Positions 2,560-15,857 of a stretch of DNA of 42,272 nt are shown in pieces (position 1 is the stretch's first letter; each line of letters opens with the position of its first letter). The DNA comes from a virus. Its lineage: Duplodnaviria; Heunggongvirae; Uroviricota; Caudoviricetes. The position numbers were made by a program, and so were the translations under genes. Below the pieces are notes generated by a model. The model had not been told where the DNA came from, ran no database searches, and saw nothing but the letters and a program-made list of their open reading frames with translations. The stretch is taken from IMG/VR virus record IMGVR_UViG_2529292726_000021; one strand, given 5' to 3'.

Positions 2560-3340
2560 CCCGATTTGGTCTAAAAAATTGACGTTTTCACACATCACTT
2601 CTTATACCCGTAATTCTACGCAGCAGATAGCGCCACAGCGTCCAATTTTCACCACAGACGACCCAACACACTACCAACAAAAACACACGCTCAAAATCGC
2701 TCCCGTTGCGTTACATAACCATATAAACAACTTATTTTCAGGCATAACAAAACAACTAAATAACACACATGCCATTCCCAAAAACAACCAACCTCTTTAT
2801 GGCAGGCTACCGAAAAGACCCACCTCTTCTCCCCAGGCTACCGGACAACCAACCTAACTTTCACAGGCAATCCGAAAACATTCATACGCGCGATACCCAC
2901 GACACGCCATTCCCCAAACAGCGAAGAAACACCAGAATCACTGAAACCCCAACGAAGCCTGTAACCGCAAGGATTCTCTCAATCCCAAAAGACACGAAAC
3001 ATAACAATCACGGGAAACGCCATTACCCAATACACGAATAACTACAAAAGCCTTTCACACACTCCAGACAAACAACTCAAACACAATAACGAAAGGAATC
3101 GCCCACCTGCCATTACTCCATACACGGAGAAGAACAATCACCAAAACGACGAGAACACCCCATAGAAGAACCACCGCAAAACGAACGAAACCACATACAC
3201 CGACAGAGAAAACAACACACCCAATTCACCAACAGAAATAGTCGCCGTATAGAACGTTCTGGAAGGAGTGAGCATTAACGCCTATAGAGAGGTTGAGACA
3301 GATAAAACACAACATGTATAGCGAAGAAGCCAGGTATGTA
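2560..3340 (+). other. A+C-rich, G/T-poor strand-asymmetric tract; candidate non-coding transcript or protein-binding region
   Basis: Sampled 60-nt lines are about 80% A+C on the plus strand; degenerate repeats GCCATT(C/A)CCCAA at about 2772, 2908, 3020, 3110; half copy of the early motif (AAGAAAACAAC, 2515-2525) just upstream. Confidence 0.35.
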
Positions 3341-3440: not shown

Positions 3441-3580
3441 ACAGGGAAAAGGTTGCATCCCGCTACAGAAACGGCTGGGTTGCCTTCGGGGAACGGCTGG
3501 AGGTTTTCAGGGAAACGGTCGAGTTGCCTGTGTGGATTTCGGGAAAAGGCTCGATGCCGGTTCAGGAACGGTGGCGTACC
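3441..3580. repeat. iteron-like direct repeat array 1 (six ~21-23 bp imperfect units)
   Basis: Units GGGAAAAGGTTG, AGAAACGGCTGG, GGGGAACGGCTGG, GGGAAACGGTCG, GGGAAAAGGCTCG, GGAACGGTGGCG spaced about two helical turns apart. Confidence 0.6.
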
Positions 3581-3888
3581 GGTATAGCGAGAGGGAGAGT
3601 TGCGGCTACCCACCTGTAATGTGCGGGAAGAAGAGAGGCGCTCACGTGCAGGCGGACTTGCTTACCGCTGGATTCCCTCTGAATGCCAGCTACAGCGTAA
3701 TTGTGCCAGACAGCCAACGGGTCACAATCGATTTCAGTAGGTTTTCGGGGAGAGGATTATTCTGCCCCCCAGCCACTTTCGGCCACTAAATCAGAATAAT
3801 GTAAAAAGTGTACTCGGTACTGAACCTGAAAACTCACTGCCAAAACCACATTCACCGGAATAAAATCCTTTTTCGCCTGTGTGTTATT

Positions 3889-3927
3889 GCGATAATAACA
3901 CCATCAAGAAAACATGTTGTTTAAGGA
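3889..3927 (+). promoter_or_regulatory. early promoter/leader module, copy
   Basis: GCGATAATAACACCATC followed by AAGAAAACAtgTTGTTTAAGGA; ATG at 3935. Confidence 0.5.
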
Positions 3928-4300: not shown

Positions 4301-4373
4301 TATAGCCGCAGGGAAGAACCTGCATATAGCTCATGCACCTGATCAATATGCTTTGTAGCCGTTTTCTTACTGG

Positions 4374-4412
4374 TATTATTTACGCCATTGAGAAAACAAG
4401 TTGTTTACGGAG
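4374..4412 (+). promoter_or_regulatory. early promoter/leader module, copy
   Basis: GAGAAAACAAGTTGTTTACGGAG immediately before ATG 4418. Confidence 0.5.
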
Positions 4413-5260: not shown

Positions 5261-5288
5261 AATGGCGCGTAAACCGCGCCATTTTCTT
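5261..5288 (+). terminator. rho-independent terminator
   Basis: AATGGCGCG-taaa-CCGCGCCATT followed by TTTCTT. Confidence 0.75.
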
Positions 5289-5296
5289 ATACCCGA

Positions 5297-5359
5297 TAAC
5301 AATTTGTTTTCTACCTTATCTACACTGCGATAATTACAACAACAAGAAAACAAGAGGAA
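5297..5359 (+). promoter_or_regulatory. early promoter/leader module, copy
   Basis: ATAACAAtTTGTTTTCTACC (5297-5315), GATAAT (5329-5334), AAGAAAACAAGAGG (5345-5358); ATG 5365. Confidence 0.5.
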
Positions 5360-5364
5360 AGCAG

Positions 5365-5559
5365 ATGAAAACTATTACTCAAGTACAGCAAATCTGGGCG
5401 CAGCTAGCAAATGAGCCTGTGGATAACAATCAGCAGCTTGAGCGTGCATTTCACCATTTTGAAGCCGGTGACAGCATCATTGACGTGTGGGTGTGGATCG
5501 ACGGGCTGTGTCCAGATATCACCGTTGCACAGTTGCAGGAGATGGGGCACGATGACTGA
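5365..5559 (+). CDS. hypothetical small protein (64 aa)
   Basis: ATG with AGAGGAAAG upstream. Confidence 0.5.
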   Translation: MKTITQVQQIWAQLANEPVDNNQQLERAFHHFEAGDSIIDVWVWIDGLCPDITVAQLQEMGHDD

Positions 5560-5901: not shown

Positions 5902-6030
5902 TATATAGGCTGCCAATGCTGGTGGCCTTAAATGACCATCCTGTTCCACGCAGGCTAAAAACACCAACCTCTTACCTCTAGGCAACCGACAAACCCACCT
6001 GTTCCCGTCCGGCTACCGCAACTTTCCACT

Positions 6031-6090
6031 TTGACGCCTTATTCGTACAACGATAATTAACACCAACAAGAAAACAATTTGTTATTTACG
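6031..6090 (+). promoter_or_regulatory. early promoter/leader module, copy with sigma70-like -35
   Basis: TTGACG (6031-6036), 17 bp, TAATTA within CGATAATTAACACCAAC, then AAGAAAACAAtTTGTTATTTACG (6068-6090); ATG 6105. Confidence 0.55.
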
Positions 6091-6104
6091 ATAAGGAATT
6101 AATC

Positions 6105-6587
6105 ATGAATTTTATCGCTACTGTAAACGCACCCGCACATGGCAATATCGCTGTAACGTTCTCTGACATTGAAAAACGAGTACTTGGTGCATGGCGCGAC
6201 AATGAGACGGTAGAACTGTCAGCACAAGAAAAATGCAATATTGCACGCGACATCATTGGCAATCGTCGTTACTCGCGGGTATTTGAGAAAGCGTATGTGG
6301 TAAATTCTGGATTCGGAACGTTCGTCTTTCCGGTGCGCTCCGGGCGATTCTGCCAGTCCAAGCTGATTGAGTTCGCTACGCAGATTTCTTTCTGGATTAA
6401 AACTCAATCGTCGTTCAAATTTTCCGACGATGAAGCAGTATCGCAGGGGATGCGGATCGCCAACAATGCGATTAAATGCAAAAACATTACGTATACCGCT
6501 GGCGTTGATACATGGAAACTGTTTTGCGCTAACTTTATGCTGAATGTATACGCAAGCAACCGCATCCACATCCTTGATGGCGTGTAA
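6105..6587 (+). CDS. hypothetical protein (160 aa)
   Basis: ATG with AAGGAA 7 nt upstream; no motif recognised. Confidence 0.6.
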   Translation: MNFIATVNAPAHGNIAVTFSDIEKRVLGAWRDNETVELSAQEKCNIARDIIGNRRYSRVFEKAYVVNSGFGTFVFPVRSGRFCQSKLIEFATQISFWIKTQSSFKFSDDEAVSQGMRIANNAIKCKNITYTAGVDTWKLFCANFMLNVYASNRIHILDGV

Positions 6588-6596
6588 CTGAGAAGA

Positions 6597-6618
6597 GGGC
6601 CAGAAACGGCCCTTTATC
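6597..6618 (+). terminator. candidate terminator
   Basis: GGGCC-agaaac-GGCCC followed by TTTATCT. Confidence 0.45.
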
Positions 6619-6636
6619 TATAGCCACCAGCTGCCG

Positions 6637-6761
6637 CAGGGAAATTTTCAGAAGCGGCGAGGAACGTATTCATGAGCCGACGGGGGAACGGCCAGGATTT
6701 TTTCGGGAAACGGCTGCATTCGCCTTTGTGTAGAAAAAACATCGGGAAGCTGGTGGAATCC
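6637..6761. repeat. iteron-like direct repeat array 2
   Basis: GGGGGAACGGCCAGG, GGGAAACGGCTGCATTCGCC, GGGAAGCTGGTGGAATCC share the GGRAAMGGYTG core of array 1. Confidence 0.55.
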
Positions 6762-6842
6762 AACCAGCGGTTGTCGGACAGGTGAGCGAGGAAAATTATG
6801 ATGACTTTCGTCGCCTGAGACATCCAGATTTCTTTCGTAGCG

Positions 6843-6897
6843 TAATCACATATGTGATTAAGTGGTGTGATTATGTGAAAAATCACGCGCACATAAT
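6843..6897. promoter_or_regulatory. cluster of palindromic operator-like sites
   Basis: Perfect 18-bp palindrome TAATCACATATGTGATTA (6843-6860) followed by further TGTGATTA / CACATAAT half-sites. Confidence 0.45.
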
Positions 6898-7134
6898 ACG
6901 CGAGCGGATACGGAGCAAAACAAAATGCCGATCCGCGCCGACAAATAAACGCGGATCATAAAGCAAGACTAAAAGCCAATAATTAACCATACTCTATAGC
7001 GCAATATAACGCGTTTTAAGCGCGTTAATGTGTTAAGTAATGGGTATATACTGGTAAGGATATAAAAGCTCGTCTGTGGCGTTATTTTGGCGCTTATTTT
7101 TATGTTGTTGGAGTGAGTTAAAGACAATAAAAAA

Positions 7135-7214
7135 GCGCCACTATTGGCGCGTTATGGTGGAAGTATTGGAAACGAAAAAAGCGCCCATAGTGGGCGCTAT
7201 TGTTTTTATTTTTC
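7135..7214. terminator. tandem hairpins; bidirectional terminator
   Basis: GCGCCA-ctat-TGGCGC (7135-7150) and GCGCCCA-tag-TGGGCGC (7181-7197) flanked by A runs on one side and T runs on the other. Confidence 0.65.
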
Positions 7215-7433
7215 TAAGTGAATATTAAAGCCAGCGTTTAAAAATTCTTGAAGCATTAAAGTAACATCAGCTTCATTGATTCCTGCGCGCGCTCTATGTT
7301 CTACGTCATTGATGTTTATTTTAAACGTTGTTTCATCAACCACTTCAGAACTTAGAGCATATCCAGCTAAACCAGCAATATCATAAACAAGAGTATGATT
7401 ATTGATATTTACGCCAGAGATGAAAATAACCAT
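7206..7433 (-). CDS. hypothetical protein C (75 aa), AT-rich cassette
   Basis: ATG with AAGGAA 8 nt upstream on minus strand; ends just before the bidirectional terminator. Confidence 0.55.
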   Translation of the reverse strand: MVIFISGVNINNHTLVYDIAGLAGYALSSEVVDETTFKININDVEHRARAGINEADVTLMLQEFLNAGFNIHLEK

Positions 7434-7454
7434 GATTAAGTTCCTTAAAAAAAA

Positions 7455-7658
7455 TTAAATAGAATTTTGAAGTTTTCCGATTAATGCGCTTAAACGTAAG
7501 TATTCACGTTTACGCTTGCAATCTCGCTTGCTGTTAAGCAAATCAGAAAACGTAAAATTTAATTGGTCGCGTTGCGCGATTAAATCATTGATTAATTCTA
7601 GTTTATAAGCGCGATACTTTGCGCGATATTCCGCGCGGATCTTGTCATAGCTGACCAT
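7455..7658 (-). CDS. hypothetical basic protein B (67 aa), AT-rich cassette
   Basis: Start moved to ATG 7658 with AAGGAG 8 nt upstream; the track start at 7703 lies inside an intergenic hairpin. Confidence 0.5.
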   Translation of the reverse strand: MVSYDKIRAEYRAKYRAYKLELINDLIAQRDQLNFTFSDLLNSKRDCKRKREYLRLSALIGKLQNSI

Positions 7659-7706
7659 TTTTAAAGCTCCTTTAAAGCGCCCATAGTGGGCGCTTGATTC
7701 CATTAA

Positions 7707-8357
7707 TTACGCTTTGAAAGCATCAGCTAAATAATTGTAGAAATCATTTTTAATGAAGCGATATTGCTGAGTACCAGCTTTCGCGCTCCCAGCTCCTTTG
7801 ACTTTTTCAACAAGTCCAAGACGTTCGCAAAGATTGATCAACTGGTTGGCTTGAGTATAGCCAGCGTCCAATTTAATTTCACACGCTTTTTTAGCTTCAT
7901 TCATTAAATCGAAAACAGCGCCATTCGTGAACGTGTCGATCTCGTCGTTAATCATATCGATTAAAGCGAATACACGAGATCCAGACATATCAGCGACGGA
8001 ATAAACACATTTACCAGCTTTAATGGATTTAACCAGATAAACCAGTTTTTCCAGTGAATAACTATTAGTCATTGCATCACGGAAAAATACTTCTGGCGCT
8101 TGTTTACTTGCTTTAATCGCATAGTAGAAAACAGAGCATAATTTTTCGTCTTCTACTGCGTTTACGACGTTGTTGATGAAGTAAGCAAGTTTCGTGGTCG
8201 CAGCTTGCATGTTTGCTTTGTCTGCTTTTGTGTGCGTACCATTTTTATAATGTTCGTTATATGTTTGAGTTGCCAGATCTGCTTTTTCGCGCAGTTCATC
8301 GGATACAATGGAAGCAGCTTCAATGATGGATTTTTTAGAAATGATAATGTTAGTCAT
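7707..8357 (-). CDS. hypothetical protein A (216 aa), AT-rich cassette
   Basis: ATG with AAGGAA upstream; no recognisable catalytic motif; AT-rich codon usage. Confidence 0.6.
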   Translation of the reverse strand: MTNIIISKKSIIEAASIVSDELREKADLATQTYNEHYKNGTHTKADKANMQAATTKLAYFINNVVNAVEDEKLCSVFYYAIKASKQAPEVFFRDAMTNSYSLEKLVYLVKSIKAGKCVYSVADMSGSRVFALIDMINDEIDTFTNGAVFDLMNEAKKACEIKLDAGYTQANQLINLCERLGLVEKVKGAGSAKAGTQQYRFIKNDFYNYLADAFKA

Positions 8358-8655
8358 GATTTTATTCCTTAGTATAAATATTAAAATTTAACTCAAGAAA
8401 GAAAGTGTTTTGCACTCGTTCCTGATGCGTTCAATTATCGATACGCGAAAAAAGATTGCAAGTGTTTTTTTTAAGTTTTTTTGCAGGGGTGAAAGTCCTA
8501 GAAATAAAAGTTAGATCGTCGAAGGTGTTCCCTAAATAAATAATAAATTCCGGCTTTTGACCTTATATATTTATACGGGGGAGAATTGAATGAGTGTTAA
8601 ACGAATGGCATGTAAAATAATAACCGGACTTAGCCGATTATTACCCTTATAGAAA

Positions 8656-9174
8656 TTAAAACGGAAGGATTCGTTCAACCCAATCGAAGAAAATAAGTAT
8701 TTTTCTACCGTCTTCCAACTTAAGTGTGACTAGACAGGCGTCAACGCCATCTGACGTTCCCTCAATTTCGCGACCGTCTGCCATGTAGACCCTTATAGAT
8801 TTGCCGTTTTGGTAAGCCTGACGACATATCTTAAAAAAGTCACGACGTGATGGCTGATTAACCATCTGTTCATTGTTTAGCGTTAGTCGACCTGTGAATG
8901 AAGTGTCAACCTCTTCTATGCCCGACTCAATTGTGCTAATGCGCTCAAGAGGGAGCCTTATACGATTTGTGTTGCTAAGCGGATCTGGTGTGAGGTTCAG
9001 CTTATTTCTTGCGCTCAATAGCCCGTAGACATACATGCAAAACACTTGGCCGTCTTCGAGAGTGACTCTTACAGGAAATTTTGCACTCCGCCAGAAGAGC
9101 AAGGTGCGCTCAGCATGTTCGTAGTCTCGCGGCCAGACTTCAGCCGGTATGCCGTAGGTGATGTCTTTAACCAT
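8656..9174 (-). CDS. hypothetical protein (172 aa) with internal repeat
   Basis: ATG with AAGG upstream; two related segments (VRVTLEDGQVFCMYVY and VTLKLEDGRKILIFFDWV). Confidence 0.55.
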   Translation of the reverse strand: MVKDITYGIPAEVWPRDYEHAERTLLFWRSAKFPVRVTLEDGQVFCMYVYGLLSARNKLNLTPDPLSNTNRIRLPLERISTIESGIEEVDTSFTGRLTLNNEQMVNQPSRRDFFKICRQAYQNGKSIRVYMADGREIEGTSDGVDACLVTLKLEDGRKILIFFDWVERILPF

Positions 9175-10571: not shown

Positions 10572-11147
10572 TTATGAGCGTTTGTTGAGCAGATCTACAA
10601 TCAGCTTTTGAGGTGTATTTTCCTCTTTTGTCTTAGGTAATCCATTCTGAGGTAGCGTCGATAGTCTGTTCTTATCTCCTCTAGGTAACTCAAGCCTTTT
10701 CTTGATCTGCACAATAAGTTCCCATAGACTGTCTTCGTTCTCAACCTTTATAGAGTAGCCTACGCCACAATATGAATCACTTTTTAAGCGATTGTGAATT
10801 TTGAACGTATTGAAGTTTGAGCTTAACTGAATATATCCTGGGGTAATACCATCTATACTTTCGATCACAGGAAGTATTTCTTTTATCTGGAAAGGGAAAA
10901 TGACCAATGAATAATCATCTCGTCTTTCCTCATTGTCTGGTGAAATTAAATAAATGTAGTAAGGGTTGTTTTTTGAATAAGATTCTCGTAATGCTGAACT
11001 CTTTCCGAAGTAGAAACCTTTAGCGTGAATTTTATCTTTCGTTTCTTTCCCCCGTTGTATCTGAATGTTATTTTCGCTAAGTGTCCCATTTGATACATAT
11101 GAAGCTTTATCCAATATCGTGTGAAGTTGTGTATTTGAAAGAGCCAT
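10572..11147 (-). CDS. hypothetical protein (191 aa)
   Basis: ATG with AAGGGA 8 nt upstream; no motif recognised. Confidence 0.6.
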   Translation of the reverse strand: MALSNTQLHTILDKASYVSNGTLSENNIQIQRGKETKDKIHAKGFYFGKSSALRESYSKNNPYYIYLISPDNEERRDDYSLVIFPFQIKEILPVIESIDGITPGYIQLSSNFNTFKIHNRLKSDSYCGVGYSIKVENEDSLWELIVQIKKRLELPRGDKNRLSTLPQNGLPKTKEENTPQKLIVDLLNKRS

Positions 11148-11291
11148 TAGCTATCCCTTCGACCAAACTCAGCGATGAAGCCTACAAATATCATTCAGCC
11201 AATCAAGAATTTTTTTCAGCCGGAGGTGTGCACTTCAAAAAATGTGATGAATGTCACATGCAGGTGCTCTCATACACCTGCATGTAGACTA

Positions 11292-13764: not shown

Positions 13765-13846
13765 AAACCTCTTTCCTTAGTGCCTTTTGTATGTTATTTG
13801 GCTATTATAATAAGTAAGTGATTACTTAGTGGATTGTAGCAATAAA

Positions 13847-14527
13847 ATGGATGTAAAAATCACGATTTTGCAGGTTGATGTTGCCAACCTTCGCCCGAAT
13901 ACCTGGAACACCAATTCGGTTGGTGCGCAGAATTTTGAAAAACTGAAAGGTTCTATCGAAAAATTGGGCTTTTTTAAGCCAATTTTGGCTCGTGAACTTG
14001 AAGATGGATTTTTTGAAATCCTCGGCGGCGAACATCGCTGGCGTGCCGCTATTGAGCAAGGAATTTCAACGGTTCCAGTGCTTTCTGTGGGCAAAATTAG
14101 CGATGTCGTAGCTAAACAGATGTCACTGGTGGACAACGAGCGATACGGTGAAGACGACCAAATCGCATTGCAACGCTTCATTGAAGAAATTCAGTCAGAA
14201 CTTGACTATCAACTGTCTGAAATCGCCCCGTATGACGACGAAATCTCGATGGTTTTAGCAAAAGAGGCGGCAATCGACCTTGAAGCACTGGAGGCGTTGT
14301 CTCGTGGTAGTGATGAGCCTGTCGATACCGACAAACGAGAGAAAACCGAACGTGTCGGTGCGGAACATCAGACCATGCGCTTCAAAGTAACTTTCGATGC
14401 GTCAGATCGCGTTGCAGAAACCATAAAAAACATCATCAAAGAGCAGGCTATTAACACCGGTAATGAAATGGAGAACGCTGGTGAGGCTCTGGTGTGGCTG
14501 GTCGACTACTACAAGGAGCGTATGTAA
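13847..14527 (+). CDS. ParB-like N-terminal domain protein
   Basis: GGEHRWRAA resembles the ParB/sulfiredoxin GxxRxxA box; start ambiguous (GTG 13829 or ATG 13847). Confidence 0.55.
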   Translation: MDVKITILQVDVANLRPNTWNTNSVGAQNFEKLKGSIEKLGFFKPILARELEDGFFEILGGEHRWRAAIEQGISTVPVLSVGKISDVVAKQMSLVDNERYGEDDQIALQRFIEEIQSELDYQLSEIAPYDDEISMVLAKEAAIDLEALEALSRGSDEPVDTDKREKTERVGAEHQTMRFKVTFDASDRVAETIKNIIKEQAINTGNEMENAGEALVWLVDYYKERM

Positions 14528-15195
14528 TGACCAAAAAGTTTGAAATCGTATATCGCGACCCGGCAGATCTTATTCCCTATGAGATGAATGCCAAAAAGCA
14601 TGATGAACAGCAGATCAGAGATCTGGCCGCAGCCATTAAAAAGCGCGGATTTGACCAGCCAATTACGGTCGATAAGAACGACGTAATTATTACTGGCCAC
14701 GGCCTCCGTGAGGCTGCAATTTTTGCTGGACTTGAGCGCGTACCGGTTATTGTTCGTGATGATCTGAGTGATGACGAGGTACGTGCAAAGCGCCTTGAAG
14801 ATAACCGACTTGCCAGCATTGATTACGATGCAATTAAGCTACAGAAAGAGCTTGAGTCGCTTGTTCTGGACGATATCGAGGTTTTCGGCTTCGAAGAGCG
14901 TGAGTTGAATGTTCTCGTTGGCAGTATGACAGAAGAAATGGACACCGACTCGCTAGTTATCGATCTTGGCGAAGAAACTAAACGACAGAAGGATGAACAC
15001 ACCGAGATCAGTCGTGAAGTTGCAGCGGAAGAAGTACGTGTTGTCGACGTATTGGGCTTTAAAACGCTTCCTGCTGGCTCTGCCATTGTTGTTGGTGATT
15101 TGCTTGCCCACATGGAAGAAATGACGGGAGAAAGCGGGGTAGACGCATTTGTGGCATATGCGGAGAAGATCTCTTCCGGGGAGATGGCTGCATGA
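14527..15195 (+). CDS. second ParB-like domain protein
   Basis: TGHGLREAA box; ATG overlaps the preceding stop (TAATG); track start 14494 would overlap the upstream gene. Confidence 0.5.
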   Translation: MTKKFEIVYRDPADLIPYEMNAKKHDEQQIRDLAAAIKKRGFDQPITVDKNDVIITGHGLREAAIFAGLERVPVIVRDDLSDDEVRAKRLEDNRLASIDYDAIKLQKELESLVLDDIEVFGFEERELNVLVGSMTEEMDTDSLVIDLGEETKRQKDEHTEISREVAAEEVRVVDVLGFKTLPAGSAIVVGDLLAHMEEMTGESGVDAFVAYAEKISSGEMAA

Positions 15196-15857
15196 GCAAA
15201 TACATCATCAACGTATCGTTTCAGACACGCGTAAATAAAACCACGCGCACGTTGGAAATCGCTGAGTCGTTCGGGCTTGGCCTGGACGAAAAAGAGTGGA
15301 CGCTTTACGACAATCTGGAGCTGGAAGTGAAGCAGGGCGATGTGGTGTACATCACCGGCCAATCCGGTTCCGGCAAATCCGTTGTGCTGCGCGAGTTGCA
15401 ACGACAGATGAAGGATGAAGGGCTGTCTGTAGCCTCCATCGATGATTTTACCTTCGATAATGAGGTTAACGTCATCGATCAGTTGGGCAAAACGACCAGT
15501 GATGCGCTTGGGTTGTTATCTATGGCTGGTCTGAACGATGCATATCTGTTTGTTCGCAAGCCTTCTGAAATGTCAGACGGCCAGAAATATCGTCTCAAGA
15601 TTGCCAAACTGATTGAGTCAGGCGCTAAAGTATGGGCTGCTGACGAGTTCGGCGCTGTTCTAGACCGTGTAACCGCTCAGGTTGTGGCGTCTAACCTCCA
15701 GCGTGCCGCTCGAAAGGTTGGTGCGACGGTAATGGTGGCGACGACTCACGAAGACCTGAAGAACGCGCTGCGCCCGGATATGCAGATCACCAAGCACTAC
15801 AAAGAACGCGTGAAGGTGGAATATCACAATGGTAGTCATGATGAGGTCCATTCATGA
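15192..15857 (+). CDS. compact ABC-type ATPase (221 aa)
   Basis: Walker A GQSGSGKS, signature-like SDGQ, Walker B VWAADEFG, H-loop ATTHED; ATGA overlap with upstream gene. Confidence 0.65.
   Translation: MSKYIINVSFQTRVNKTTRTLEIAESFGLGLDEKEWTLYDNLELEVKQGDVVYITGQSGSGKSVVLRELQRQMKDEGLSVASIDDFTFDNEVNVIDQLGKTTSDALGLLSMAGLNDAYLFVRKPSEMSDGQKYRLKIAKLIESGAKVWAADEFGAVLDRVTAQVVASNLQRAARKVGATVMVATTHEDLKNALRPDMQITKHYKERVKVEYHNGSHDEVHS

Follow-up and report, generated by a model that had tools for sequence, protein, structure and literature searches.

A lineage-specific palindrome cluster in a variable cassette of a conserved noncoding gap of SSU5-type phage-plasmids

The virus record IMGVR_UViG_2529292726_000021 (42,272 nucleotides; the whole of this stretch is called the window here) is, as read from its sequence, part of a phage-plasmid of the SSU5/pHCM2/pMT1 type. 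At positions 6843-6897 it carries a dense cluster of palindromic half-sites, which the original prediction took for a possible operator of a regulator controlling the genes of an adjacent AT-rich island. We propose another reading and hold it tentatively, at a probability of about one in three: the cluster would be a lineage-specific array of protein-binding half-sites, located in a variable cassette of a conserved, insulated and cis-acting noncoding locus, and not an operator of island genes. The cluster is the type A allele, belonging to the E. coli lineage, of an exchangeable cassette of ~180 bp held in a terminator-insulated, gene-free gap of ~620 bp, which SSU5/pHCM2/pMT1-type phage-plasmids all have between one and the same pair of convergent genes. 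The half-sites would form a DNA-level platform for a dimeric or multimeric DNA-binding protein, and this platform might be one part of a maintenance- or replication-type locus that also comprises phased GGRAAMGG repeats, an AT-rich tract and flanking Chi sites. The position and insulation of the cluster, the conservation of the gap, the replacement of alleles, the lack of a conserved open reading frame or known RNA family and the enrichment of the motif are observed; the binding, the protein bound and the role of the locus are what we infer from the arrangement of the DNA described below.

A conserved, gene-free gap with an exchangeable cassette

The window starts within metG and runs through small early genes and the AT-rich island to the head and tail genes. 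Placement of the cluster at the junction of early region and island is confirmed by a fall in GC content from 0.458 (6001-7000) to 0.375 (7001-8000). The gap in which it lies measures 621 bp in the window and is enclosed, 3' to 3', by the convergent genes of a 160-amino-acid protein (6105..6587, plus strand) and a 75-amino-acid protein (7206..7433, minus strand); public annotations of four relatives place zero genes between the two. Thirteen representative gap sequences share no open reading frame across cassette types, and insertions or deletions of 1-2 nt occur within the conserved blocks, so the gap is non-coding. About 240 E. coli plasmids of 95-120 kb match the 2 kb surrounding the cluster, as do the phages PhiR41_1, Cyrano and CMS-2020a, and Klebsiella phage-plasmids and Salmonella phage SSU5 match the same 2 kb at lower identity. 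The gap itself is 100% identical to that of the E. coli plasmid CP025888.1 and is recognisable in 782 plasmids from Klebsiella, Escherichia, Enterobacter, Yersinia (pMT1), Salmonella (pHCM2), Citrobacter and Cronobacter. Its size (about 580-640 bp) and long blocks of its sequence are kept across Escherichia, Klebsiella, Enterobacter, Citrobacter, Salmonella (pHCM2, SSU5) and Y. pestis pMT1, and among these genera the best-conserved noncoding blocks hardly change, while the neighbouring 160-amino-acid protein is only about 67-81% identical to that of the window outside E. coli. Alignments of nine diverged relatives, and then of 54 distinct sequences (the window, the loci found before and 57 IMG/VR loci retrieved by means of a 29-nt conserved pattern), resolve these blocks as the terminator of the 160-amino-acid gene, GCCGCAGGGAAA, TTTTCGGGAAACGGCTGG, CCATCCAGAT..CTTTCG, AT(A/G)ATACGCGAGCG, GTAATGGGTAT and two terminators.

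Between the conserved flanks the cassette occurs in at least four alleles, and one further type (L137) was seen. Type A is the cassette of the window. Type B, which reads ATGTGATTATGTGAATCCGTGGGTAAACCACTGCAAGCGCGTACACGTCGCGCCAACGTG, is carried by SSU5, pHCM2, pMT1 and most Klebsiella, Enterobacter and Citrobacter elements, and it hardly varies in this segment among five genera. A CAGCGC...GCGCTG hairpin marks type C, which lacks TGTGATTA, the 8-mer repeated in the cluster, and type D has tandem GGCTTTAACGCTAAAT units; none of types B, C and D contains the palindrome. What types A and B have in common is confined to TGTGATTATGTGAA...AAATCAC, and by direct reading the spacing of the inverted arms (TGTGATTA...AAATCAC) differs between the two by about 9-10 bp, roughly one helical turn. 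The half-site ATCAC/GTGAT occurs 4 times in 42 bp of type A and 3-6 times in 150 bp of type B, against a background of 2.7 per kb (an enrichment of about 10-fold in both alleles), and is found nowhere else in 684-bp extracts of type A and most type B sequences. Among E. coli carriers, 206 plasmids have type A versus about 30 with type B, the latter isolated from humans, pigs, poultry, mink and a frog.

Within the cluster, direct sequence search recovered the 18-bp perfect palindrome and the further half-sites exactly where they had been described. All three copies of TGTGATTA in the window fall here (at 6853 and 6866, besides the other arm of the palindrome), and four half-sites of the form ATCAC(A/G)/GTGAT lie within 42-45 bp in alternating orientation. 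The likeness to a multi-site operator is partial. Binding of a protein to dyad half-sites is still the most plausible hypothesis, but only the 6843-6860 palindrome is a full dyad, and the other inverted pairs have spacers of 8, 12 or 15 nt and the opposite order of half-sites. In 206 E. coli genomes, a 116-bp segment that includes the cluster matches at no less than 95% identity, and every one of these copies lies on a plasmid, none on the chromosome. A scan of genome contigs with a motif pattern of 14 specified bases returned chance matches only, and in the 109-kb type A plasmid GTEN_23 the motif is absent near the helix-turn-helix regulator, near the recombinase and elsewhere, bar one copy in a coding region at 15588.

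Transcription appears to be kept out of the gap. A terminator scan found 8 sites with a hairpin plus T-run in 6400-7500 versus 1.5 expected, a promoter scan found no promoter-like site overlapping 6843-6897, and no conserved sigma-70-type promoter was found in the gap on either strand; the plus-strand candidate at 6775-6802 loses the T of its -10 element in 4 of 23 relatives. The island genes read toward the gap and stop short of it, two minus-strand terminators (7198-7180 and 7150-7135) separate the cluster from the island unit, and terminators stand between the cluster and both of the flanking genes. Taken with its phased repeats, Chi sites and AT-rich part (described below), the gap resembles a transcriptionally insulated, cis-acting DNA locus. 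An operator for island genes is not expected at the cluster because it lies downstream of the island unit, beyond the terminators, and overlaps no promoter.

Candidate binders and competing explanations

If the half-sites are bound by a protein, two candidates can be named from sequence: host DnaA and the predicted winged-helix protein of 216 amino acids encoded 0.8 kb away. For DnaA, the cluster contains one exact match to TTWTNCACA (6874-6882, minus strand), one with 1 mismatch (6853-6861, minus strand) and two with 2 mismatches, and TTCACATAATCACA, the piece kept in both type A and type B, is similar to the tandem boxes for DnaA, TTATTCACATATCCACA, at the oriR of GTEN_23. The context is also origin-like, with an adjacent AT-rich tract (GC content 0.375 from 7001) and GGRAAMGG units phased at 22 bp. 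The GGRAAMGG segment is the most conserved part of the gap and has a paralogous array at 3444-3575, in the same orientation and likewise in a gene-free gap, where six units are spaced by 22, 22, 22, 31 and 22 bp; several relatives hold two exact copies of the 17-mer TTTCGGGAAACGGCTGG at a distance of about 3.3 kb, and the paralogy does not reach beyond about 40 bp. These arrays look like iteron- or centromere-type repeats. A role as a CsrA sponge was considered as well, and in our view the regular 22-bp phasing of GGA-rich repeats fits DNA binding better than RNA binding. An inverted pair of Chi sites (6624-6631, minus strand; 6749-6756, plus strand) brackets the repeats and is kept in most relatives; overall, Chi (GCTGGTGG) occurs 9 times in the window versus about 1 expected, and 23 times in GTEN_23.

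A number of observations weigh against the proposal that the cluster is a functional half-site array. In shuffle tests the palindrome and the cluster barely exceed chance: 6843-6860 is the longest perfect palindrome of the window, yet arms of at least 9 arise in 48 of 300 composition-matched shuffles (16%), and some 8-mer occurs three times within 40 bp in 10 of 200 (5%). The palindromes would fold equally well as RNA. Cassettes of types C and D lack the half-site (at most one copy, outside the cassette), so not every form of the locus requires the motif. Matches to the DnaA box are not enriched in the window (74 versus 92 expected), most of the DnaA-like boxes have an A in place of the conserved T at position 4, there is no adjacent initiator gene, and the RepA iterons TATGCTGNCAGCGG, found at the rep gene about 40 kb away in GTEN_23, are unrelated. 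In a natural exchange, type-A-like flanks enclose a type B cassette in plasmid pXH988_2 (NZ_CP019354.1), yet 15 of the 19 matched window proteins within about ±10 kb are 98-100% identical, among them the 216-amino-acid protein (98.1%), the helicase (99.4%), ParB (100%), the TerS-like protein (99.5%) and TerL (99.8%), and nearly all these identities are close to the values for GTEN_23. No nearby protein covaries with the palindrome, either among these 19 or in a larger table of relatives, where the identities of neighbouring proteins track lineage and not cassette type. Because these 15 neighbours are essentially unchanged in pXH988_2, an allele-specific binder encoded nearby is argued against, and, judging from this plasmid, an element whose local make-up is otherwise nearly the same can circulate without the palindrome.

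Several other kinds of site were sought and set aside. An incA-like iteron array for the plasmid RepA is rejected, the RepA iterons being TATGCTGNCAGCGG. A pac site is unlikely, the terminase genes lying 10 kb away and the TerS-like protein being nearly unchanged in the element with the other cassette. A CRP site at 6843-6897 is rejected, with no match at up to 1 mismatch. No initiator domain was found in the neighbouring proteins, and the 160-amino-acid protein has no fold match.

The original prediction, a multi-site operator at which a phage or plasmid repressor controls the island genes together with a second palindrome at 11242-11259, now seems improbable. A dyad of TAATCACAT and ATGTGATTA with an ATCAC core, such as lambdoid operator half-sites carry, the clustering of several half-sites and the winged-helix protein encoded in the island all speak for it, but the transcriptional layout described above does not, and island genes have promoter-like blocks of their own (that of the 216-amino-acid gene lies near 8440-8470, and this gene also has a terminator to itself, 7674-7694). 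Further copies of TGTGATTA are lacking both in the rest of the island and around the GTEN_23 helix-turn-helix regulator, a cassette swap leaves the neighbouring proteins unchanged, no regulator covaries with the cluster, ~30 E. coli plasmids circulate without this cluster, and types C and D do without the motif altogether. As for the second palindrome, it does lie upstream of the 191-amino-acid gene, but the proposed kinship with the palindrome at 6843 fails: its core at 11243-11258, TGTGATGAATGTCACA, is an exact CRP-type TGTGA-N6-TCACA whose half-sites face each other across 6 bp, whereas those at 6843 face away from each other across 2 bp (TCACA-TA-TGTGA), and the two appear from their geometry to be different motifs. 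This core is the only match in the window at up to 1 mismatch, although at least one such match arises in 78% of shuffles. It sits just past the hairpin that ends the 199-amino-acid gene, in a promoter-proximal gap, suggesting possible catabolite control of an island gene.

The cluster could instead have no specific function, having arisen in one lineage when a segment with TGTGATTA was duplicated in inverted orientation within a variable spacer prone to recombination, and being kept by descent in the E. coli clade. We regard this as unlikely, even though much is compatible with it: the marginal shuffle statistics, the replaceability of the cassette in a near-identical backbone with both forms in circulation, the lack of the motif in types C and D, and the variation of the cluster itself, as the palindrome has the centre CATATG in 6 of 23 distinct type A sequences and CATACG in the other 17, making the perfect form a minority allele, and 5 of 55 sites vary within the cluster, a share similar to that in the adjacent 6801-6842 segment (4 of 42). 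Such a reading does not account for the conserved islands and the Chi site retained across alleles, for a type B segment that stays nearly invariant in five genera while the 160-amino-acid protein diverges, or for the enrichment of the half-site in types A and B. An element acting at the level of RNA is doubtful to much the same extent. Here hairpins, terminators or antisense-type boxes in a noncoding transcript of the gap would matter, with the cassette as an immunity-like specificity determinant that needs no protein gene, which would explain alleles that have neither an open reading frame nor a covarying protein. Its positive support consists of hairpin potential: four terminator-like hairpins follow one another on the minus strand, the one at 6902-6886 with its T-run overlapping the cluster; single-strand folding of the cluster gives z-scores of -2.5 to -3.1 versus shuffles on both strands; and there are minus-strand hairpins with GAAA loops and one compensatory G-C to C-G pair in a small hairpin with a conserved CCAGAAA loop. 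Against it, Rfam 15 has no match at the gathering score in the window (with chance-level hits only, on the terminators at 7120-7260), and RNAalifold on 11 and 23 sequences, whose alignment is poor in the variable parts, finds few two-sided changes and many broken pairs, so that covariation is near zero or unfavourable on either strand. Point variants in the left arm of the palindrome (L168, L141) are uncompensated, a conserved promoter is lacking, and a survey of small RNAs in Y. pestis places two on pMT1, only near ymt and none in the gap (PMC3770706).

A site for site-specific recombination, multimer resolution or partition (a recombinase core, a dif/cer-like site or parS) is very improbable. 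Most relatives do have an asymmetric CATACG centre between inverted arms of 8-9 bp, a tyrosine recombinase and ParB-domain proteins are encoded elsewhere in the element, and the phage-plasmid N15 has dispersed palindromic centromeres. In the window, however, neither a dif/cer-type site (XerC arm, spacer and XerD arm, with a 6-nt spacer only) nor the parS-like 16-bp palindrome TGTTNCACGTGAAACA has a match at up to 3 mismatches, the motif is absent near the recombinase gene, ParB is fully identical in an element that lacks the palindrome, and types B, C and D lack it as well. A broader version of the half-site array that we favour is, in our estimate, distinctly unlikely: the gap would be a so far unrecognised cis-acting locus of the whole family, a second or lytic origin or a centromere-like site built on GGRAAMGG, in which the cassette is an exchangeable determinant of specificity or incompatibility and the cluster its type A recognition module. 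If this were true, cassette swapping would define compatibility or immunity groups among clinically important phage-plasmids.

Feature coordinates and neighbouring genes

Coordinates of the features in and around the gap are collected in Table 1. Boundaries of the cassette are approximate and were read from the alignments.

Table 1. Positions of the cluster, of other gap elements and of related features in the window
Feature	Position	Strand	Remarks
Perfect palindrome TAATCACATATGTGATTA	6843-6860		18 bp; arms TAATCACAT/ATGTGATTA are two inverted copies of TGTGATTA
TGTGATTATGTGAA...AAATCAC	6866..6886		sole part of the cluster common to cassette type B; its reverse complement TTTTTCACATAATCACA holds the exact TTWTNCACA
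Inverted repeat ATTATGTG / CACATAAT	6870-6877 / 6890-6897		12 nt between arms
AATCAC	6881-6886		in cluster
Terminator-like hairpin CGCGTATTATGTGCGCG then TGATTTTTCA	6886..6902	-	7 pairs, followed by T-run; overlaps right end of cluster
Conserved box ATAATACGCGAGCG (ATGATACGCGAGCG in type B)	6893..6906		right edge of cassette; -10-like on both strands, no -35 found
Variable cassette, type A allele	6715..6895		~180 bp; unrelated or partly related sequence in types B, C, D and E
Hairpin GGGCCAGAAACGGCCC + TTTA	6598..6625	+	end of 160-amino-acid gene transcript; read directly, conserved; weak T-run, absent from terminator scan list
GGRAAMGG repeats	6637..6716	+	GGGGAACGGC at 6683 and GGGAAACGGC at 6705, 22 bp apart; degenerate copies at 6611, 6637, 6649, 6659
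Chi site	6624..6631	-	CCACCAGC on plus strand
Chi site GCTGGTGG	6749..6756	+	kept in most A, B and C cassettes despite differing surroundings
All Chi sites of the window	5918, 6624, 6749, 12431, 19780, 28652, 31495, 34818, 35910		
Terminator-like hairpin GATCCGCG...CGCGGATC then GCATTTTGTT	6929..6958	-	
AT-rich part of gap	6960..7130		repeated motifs of WATAACGCG/TAAAACGC type in both orientations, also described as ATAACGCG-type, and invariant block GTAATGGGTAT
Intrinsic terminator, second in series	7135..7150	-	conserved; stem sequence varies among aligned relatives (read, not scored pairwise)
Bidirectional terminator, end of 75-amino-acid gene	7180..7198	both	identical 21-nt copy at 7674-7694
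Gene of 216-amino-acid protein	7707..8357	-	predicted C-terminal winged-helix domain; syntenic with gap even in distant relatives
Palindrome ATGTGATGAATGTCACAT	11242-11259		95 bp upstream of start of 191-amino-acid gene (10572..11147, minus)
Promoter-like block copies	1218-1290, 2502-2540, 2733-2771, 3867-3921, 4351-4405, 5281-5369, 6029-6083, 8440-8470		8440-8470 on minus strand

The early region has its own regularities. Most small early genes, and the 216-amino-acid gene, are preceded by a copy of one conserved promoter-like block (TTGAC/TTGCA ... CGATAAT(T)AACACC ... AAGAAAACAA), and every small early gene appears to have its own promoter and terminator. The 21-nt terminator AAAGCGCCCATAGTGGGCGCT is identical at 7178-7198 and 7674-7694, 3' of two different small genes, and the genes between and beside its two copies (for proteins of 75 and 82 amino acids) differ strongly from one relative to another, suggesting that moron cassettes are exchanged at common terminators. 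Tandem repeats of 30-31 nt (AAACAACCAACCT...AGGCTACCG) stand at 2781-2877 and 5957-6022; between these two sites, the stretch 2950-3250 is unusually rich in A and C, and its open reading frames are putative.

Further into the island, a 172-amino-acid protein (8656..9174, minus strand) matches the Pfam family Flag1_repress (FljA, the phase-1 flagellin repressor; E = 1e-68) and shows 67% to 100% identity among close relatives; as a moron product it could alter host flagellin expression. At 13829..15857, two consecutive proteins with ParB_N domains and an ABC-type ATPase open a rightward operon, divergent from the gene of a DEAD/DEAH helicase, and may serve in partition or DNA modification. The plasmid origin of GTEN_23 (NZ_CP113488.1; L189-L191), from about -300 to 1700 around the rep gene, has at least 15 iterons flanking rep on both sides, a GATC cluster and the tandem DnaA boxes. 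Cumulative GC skew over the whole plasmid tracks gene orientation and is uninformative on origin or terminus.

Significance and comparison with known systems

Both pHCM2 of S. Typhi and pMT1 of Y. pestis are phage-plasmids of the SSU5 type, as are many elements of E. coli and Klebsiella with CTX-M-15 or carbapenemase genes, and the literature searched yielded no account of how their lysogeny is controlled or of their cis-acting sites. Were the gap to act in cis through recognition cassettes that can be swapped, the replication, segregation, incompatibility or immunity of these elements could be approached through it, and it could serve as a typing marker. Were the cluster a mere lineage-specific duplication, the finding would be ordinary and the operator model misleading for annotation. 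The function of the whole gap locus is a more interesting question than that of the cluster itself.

The cluster shares traits with several known systems and departs from each of them. As in lambdoid OR/OL (half-site TATCACCGC), there is an ATCAC/GTGAT dyad of about 17-18 bp, and the half-site stands in more than one copy within a short distance; unlike them, there is a single full dyad, spacing and orientation vary, no promoter is overlapped, no repressor gene is adjacent or covaries, and the setting is a 3'-3' gap. Origins with clusters of DnaA boxes, such as P1 oriR and the oriR of GTEN_23, likewise combine tandem 9-mers ending in CACA (here TTTTTCACA-TAATCACA) with phased repeats, an AT-rich tract and insulation, but here the T at position 4 is mostly broken, an adjacent initiator gene is missing, the repeats bear no relation to the RepA iterons, and boxes are lacking in types C and D. 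A CRP site is resembled by the exact core in the promoter-proximal gap at 11243-11258, whereas the half-sites at 6843 are inverted (TCACA-N2-TGTGA) or spaced by N4 or N12. Palindromic centromeres of the sopC kind in N15 are also perfect, noncoding and remote from the partition genes; they are dispersed, whereas the present site is single and the ParB-domain proteins do not covary with it. Finally, the c4 RNA of P1 and P7 and the CI RNA of P4 are, like the cassette, short, variable and free of open reading frames, with internally complementary boxes, several terminators and alleles that differ without a change in protein; they have no sequence similarity to the cassette, where no conserved promoter was found and covariation is slight.
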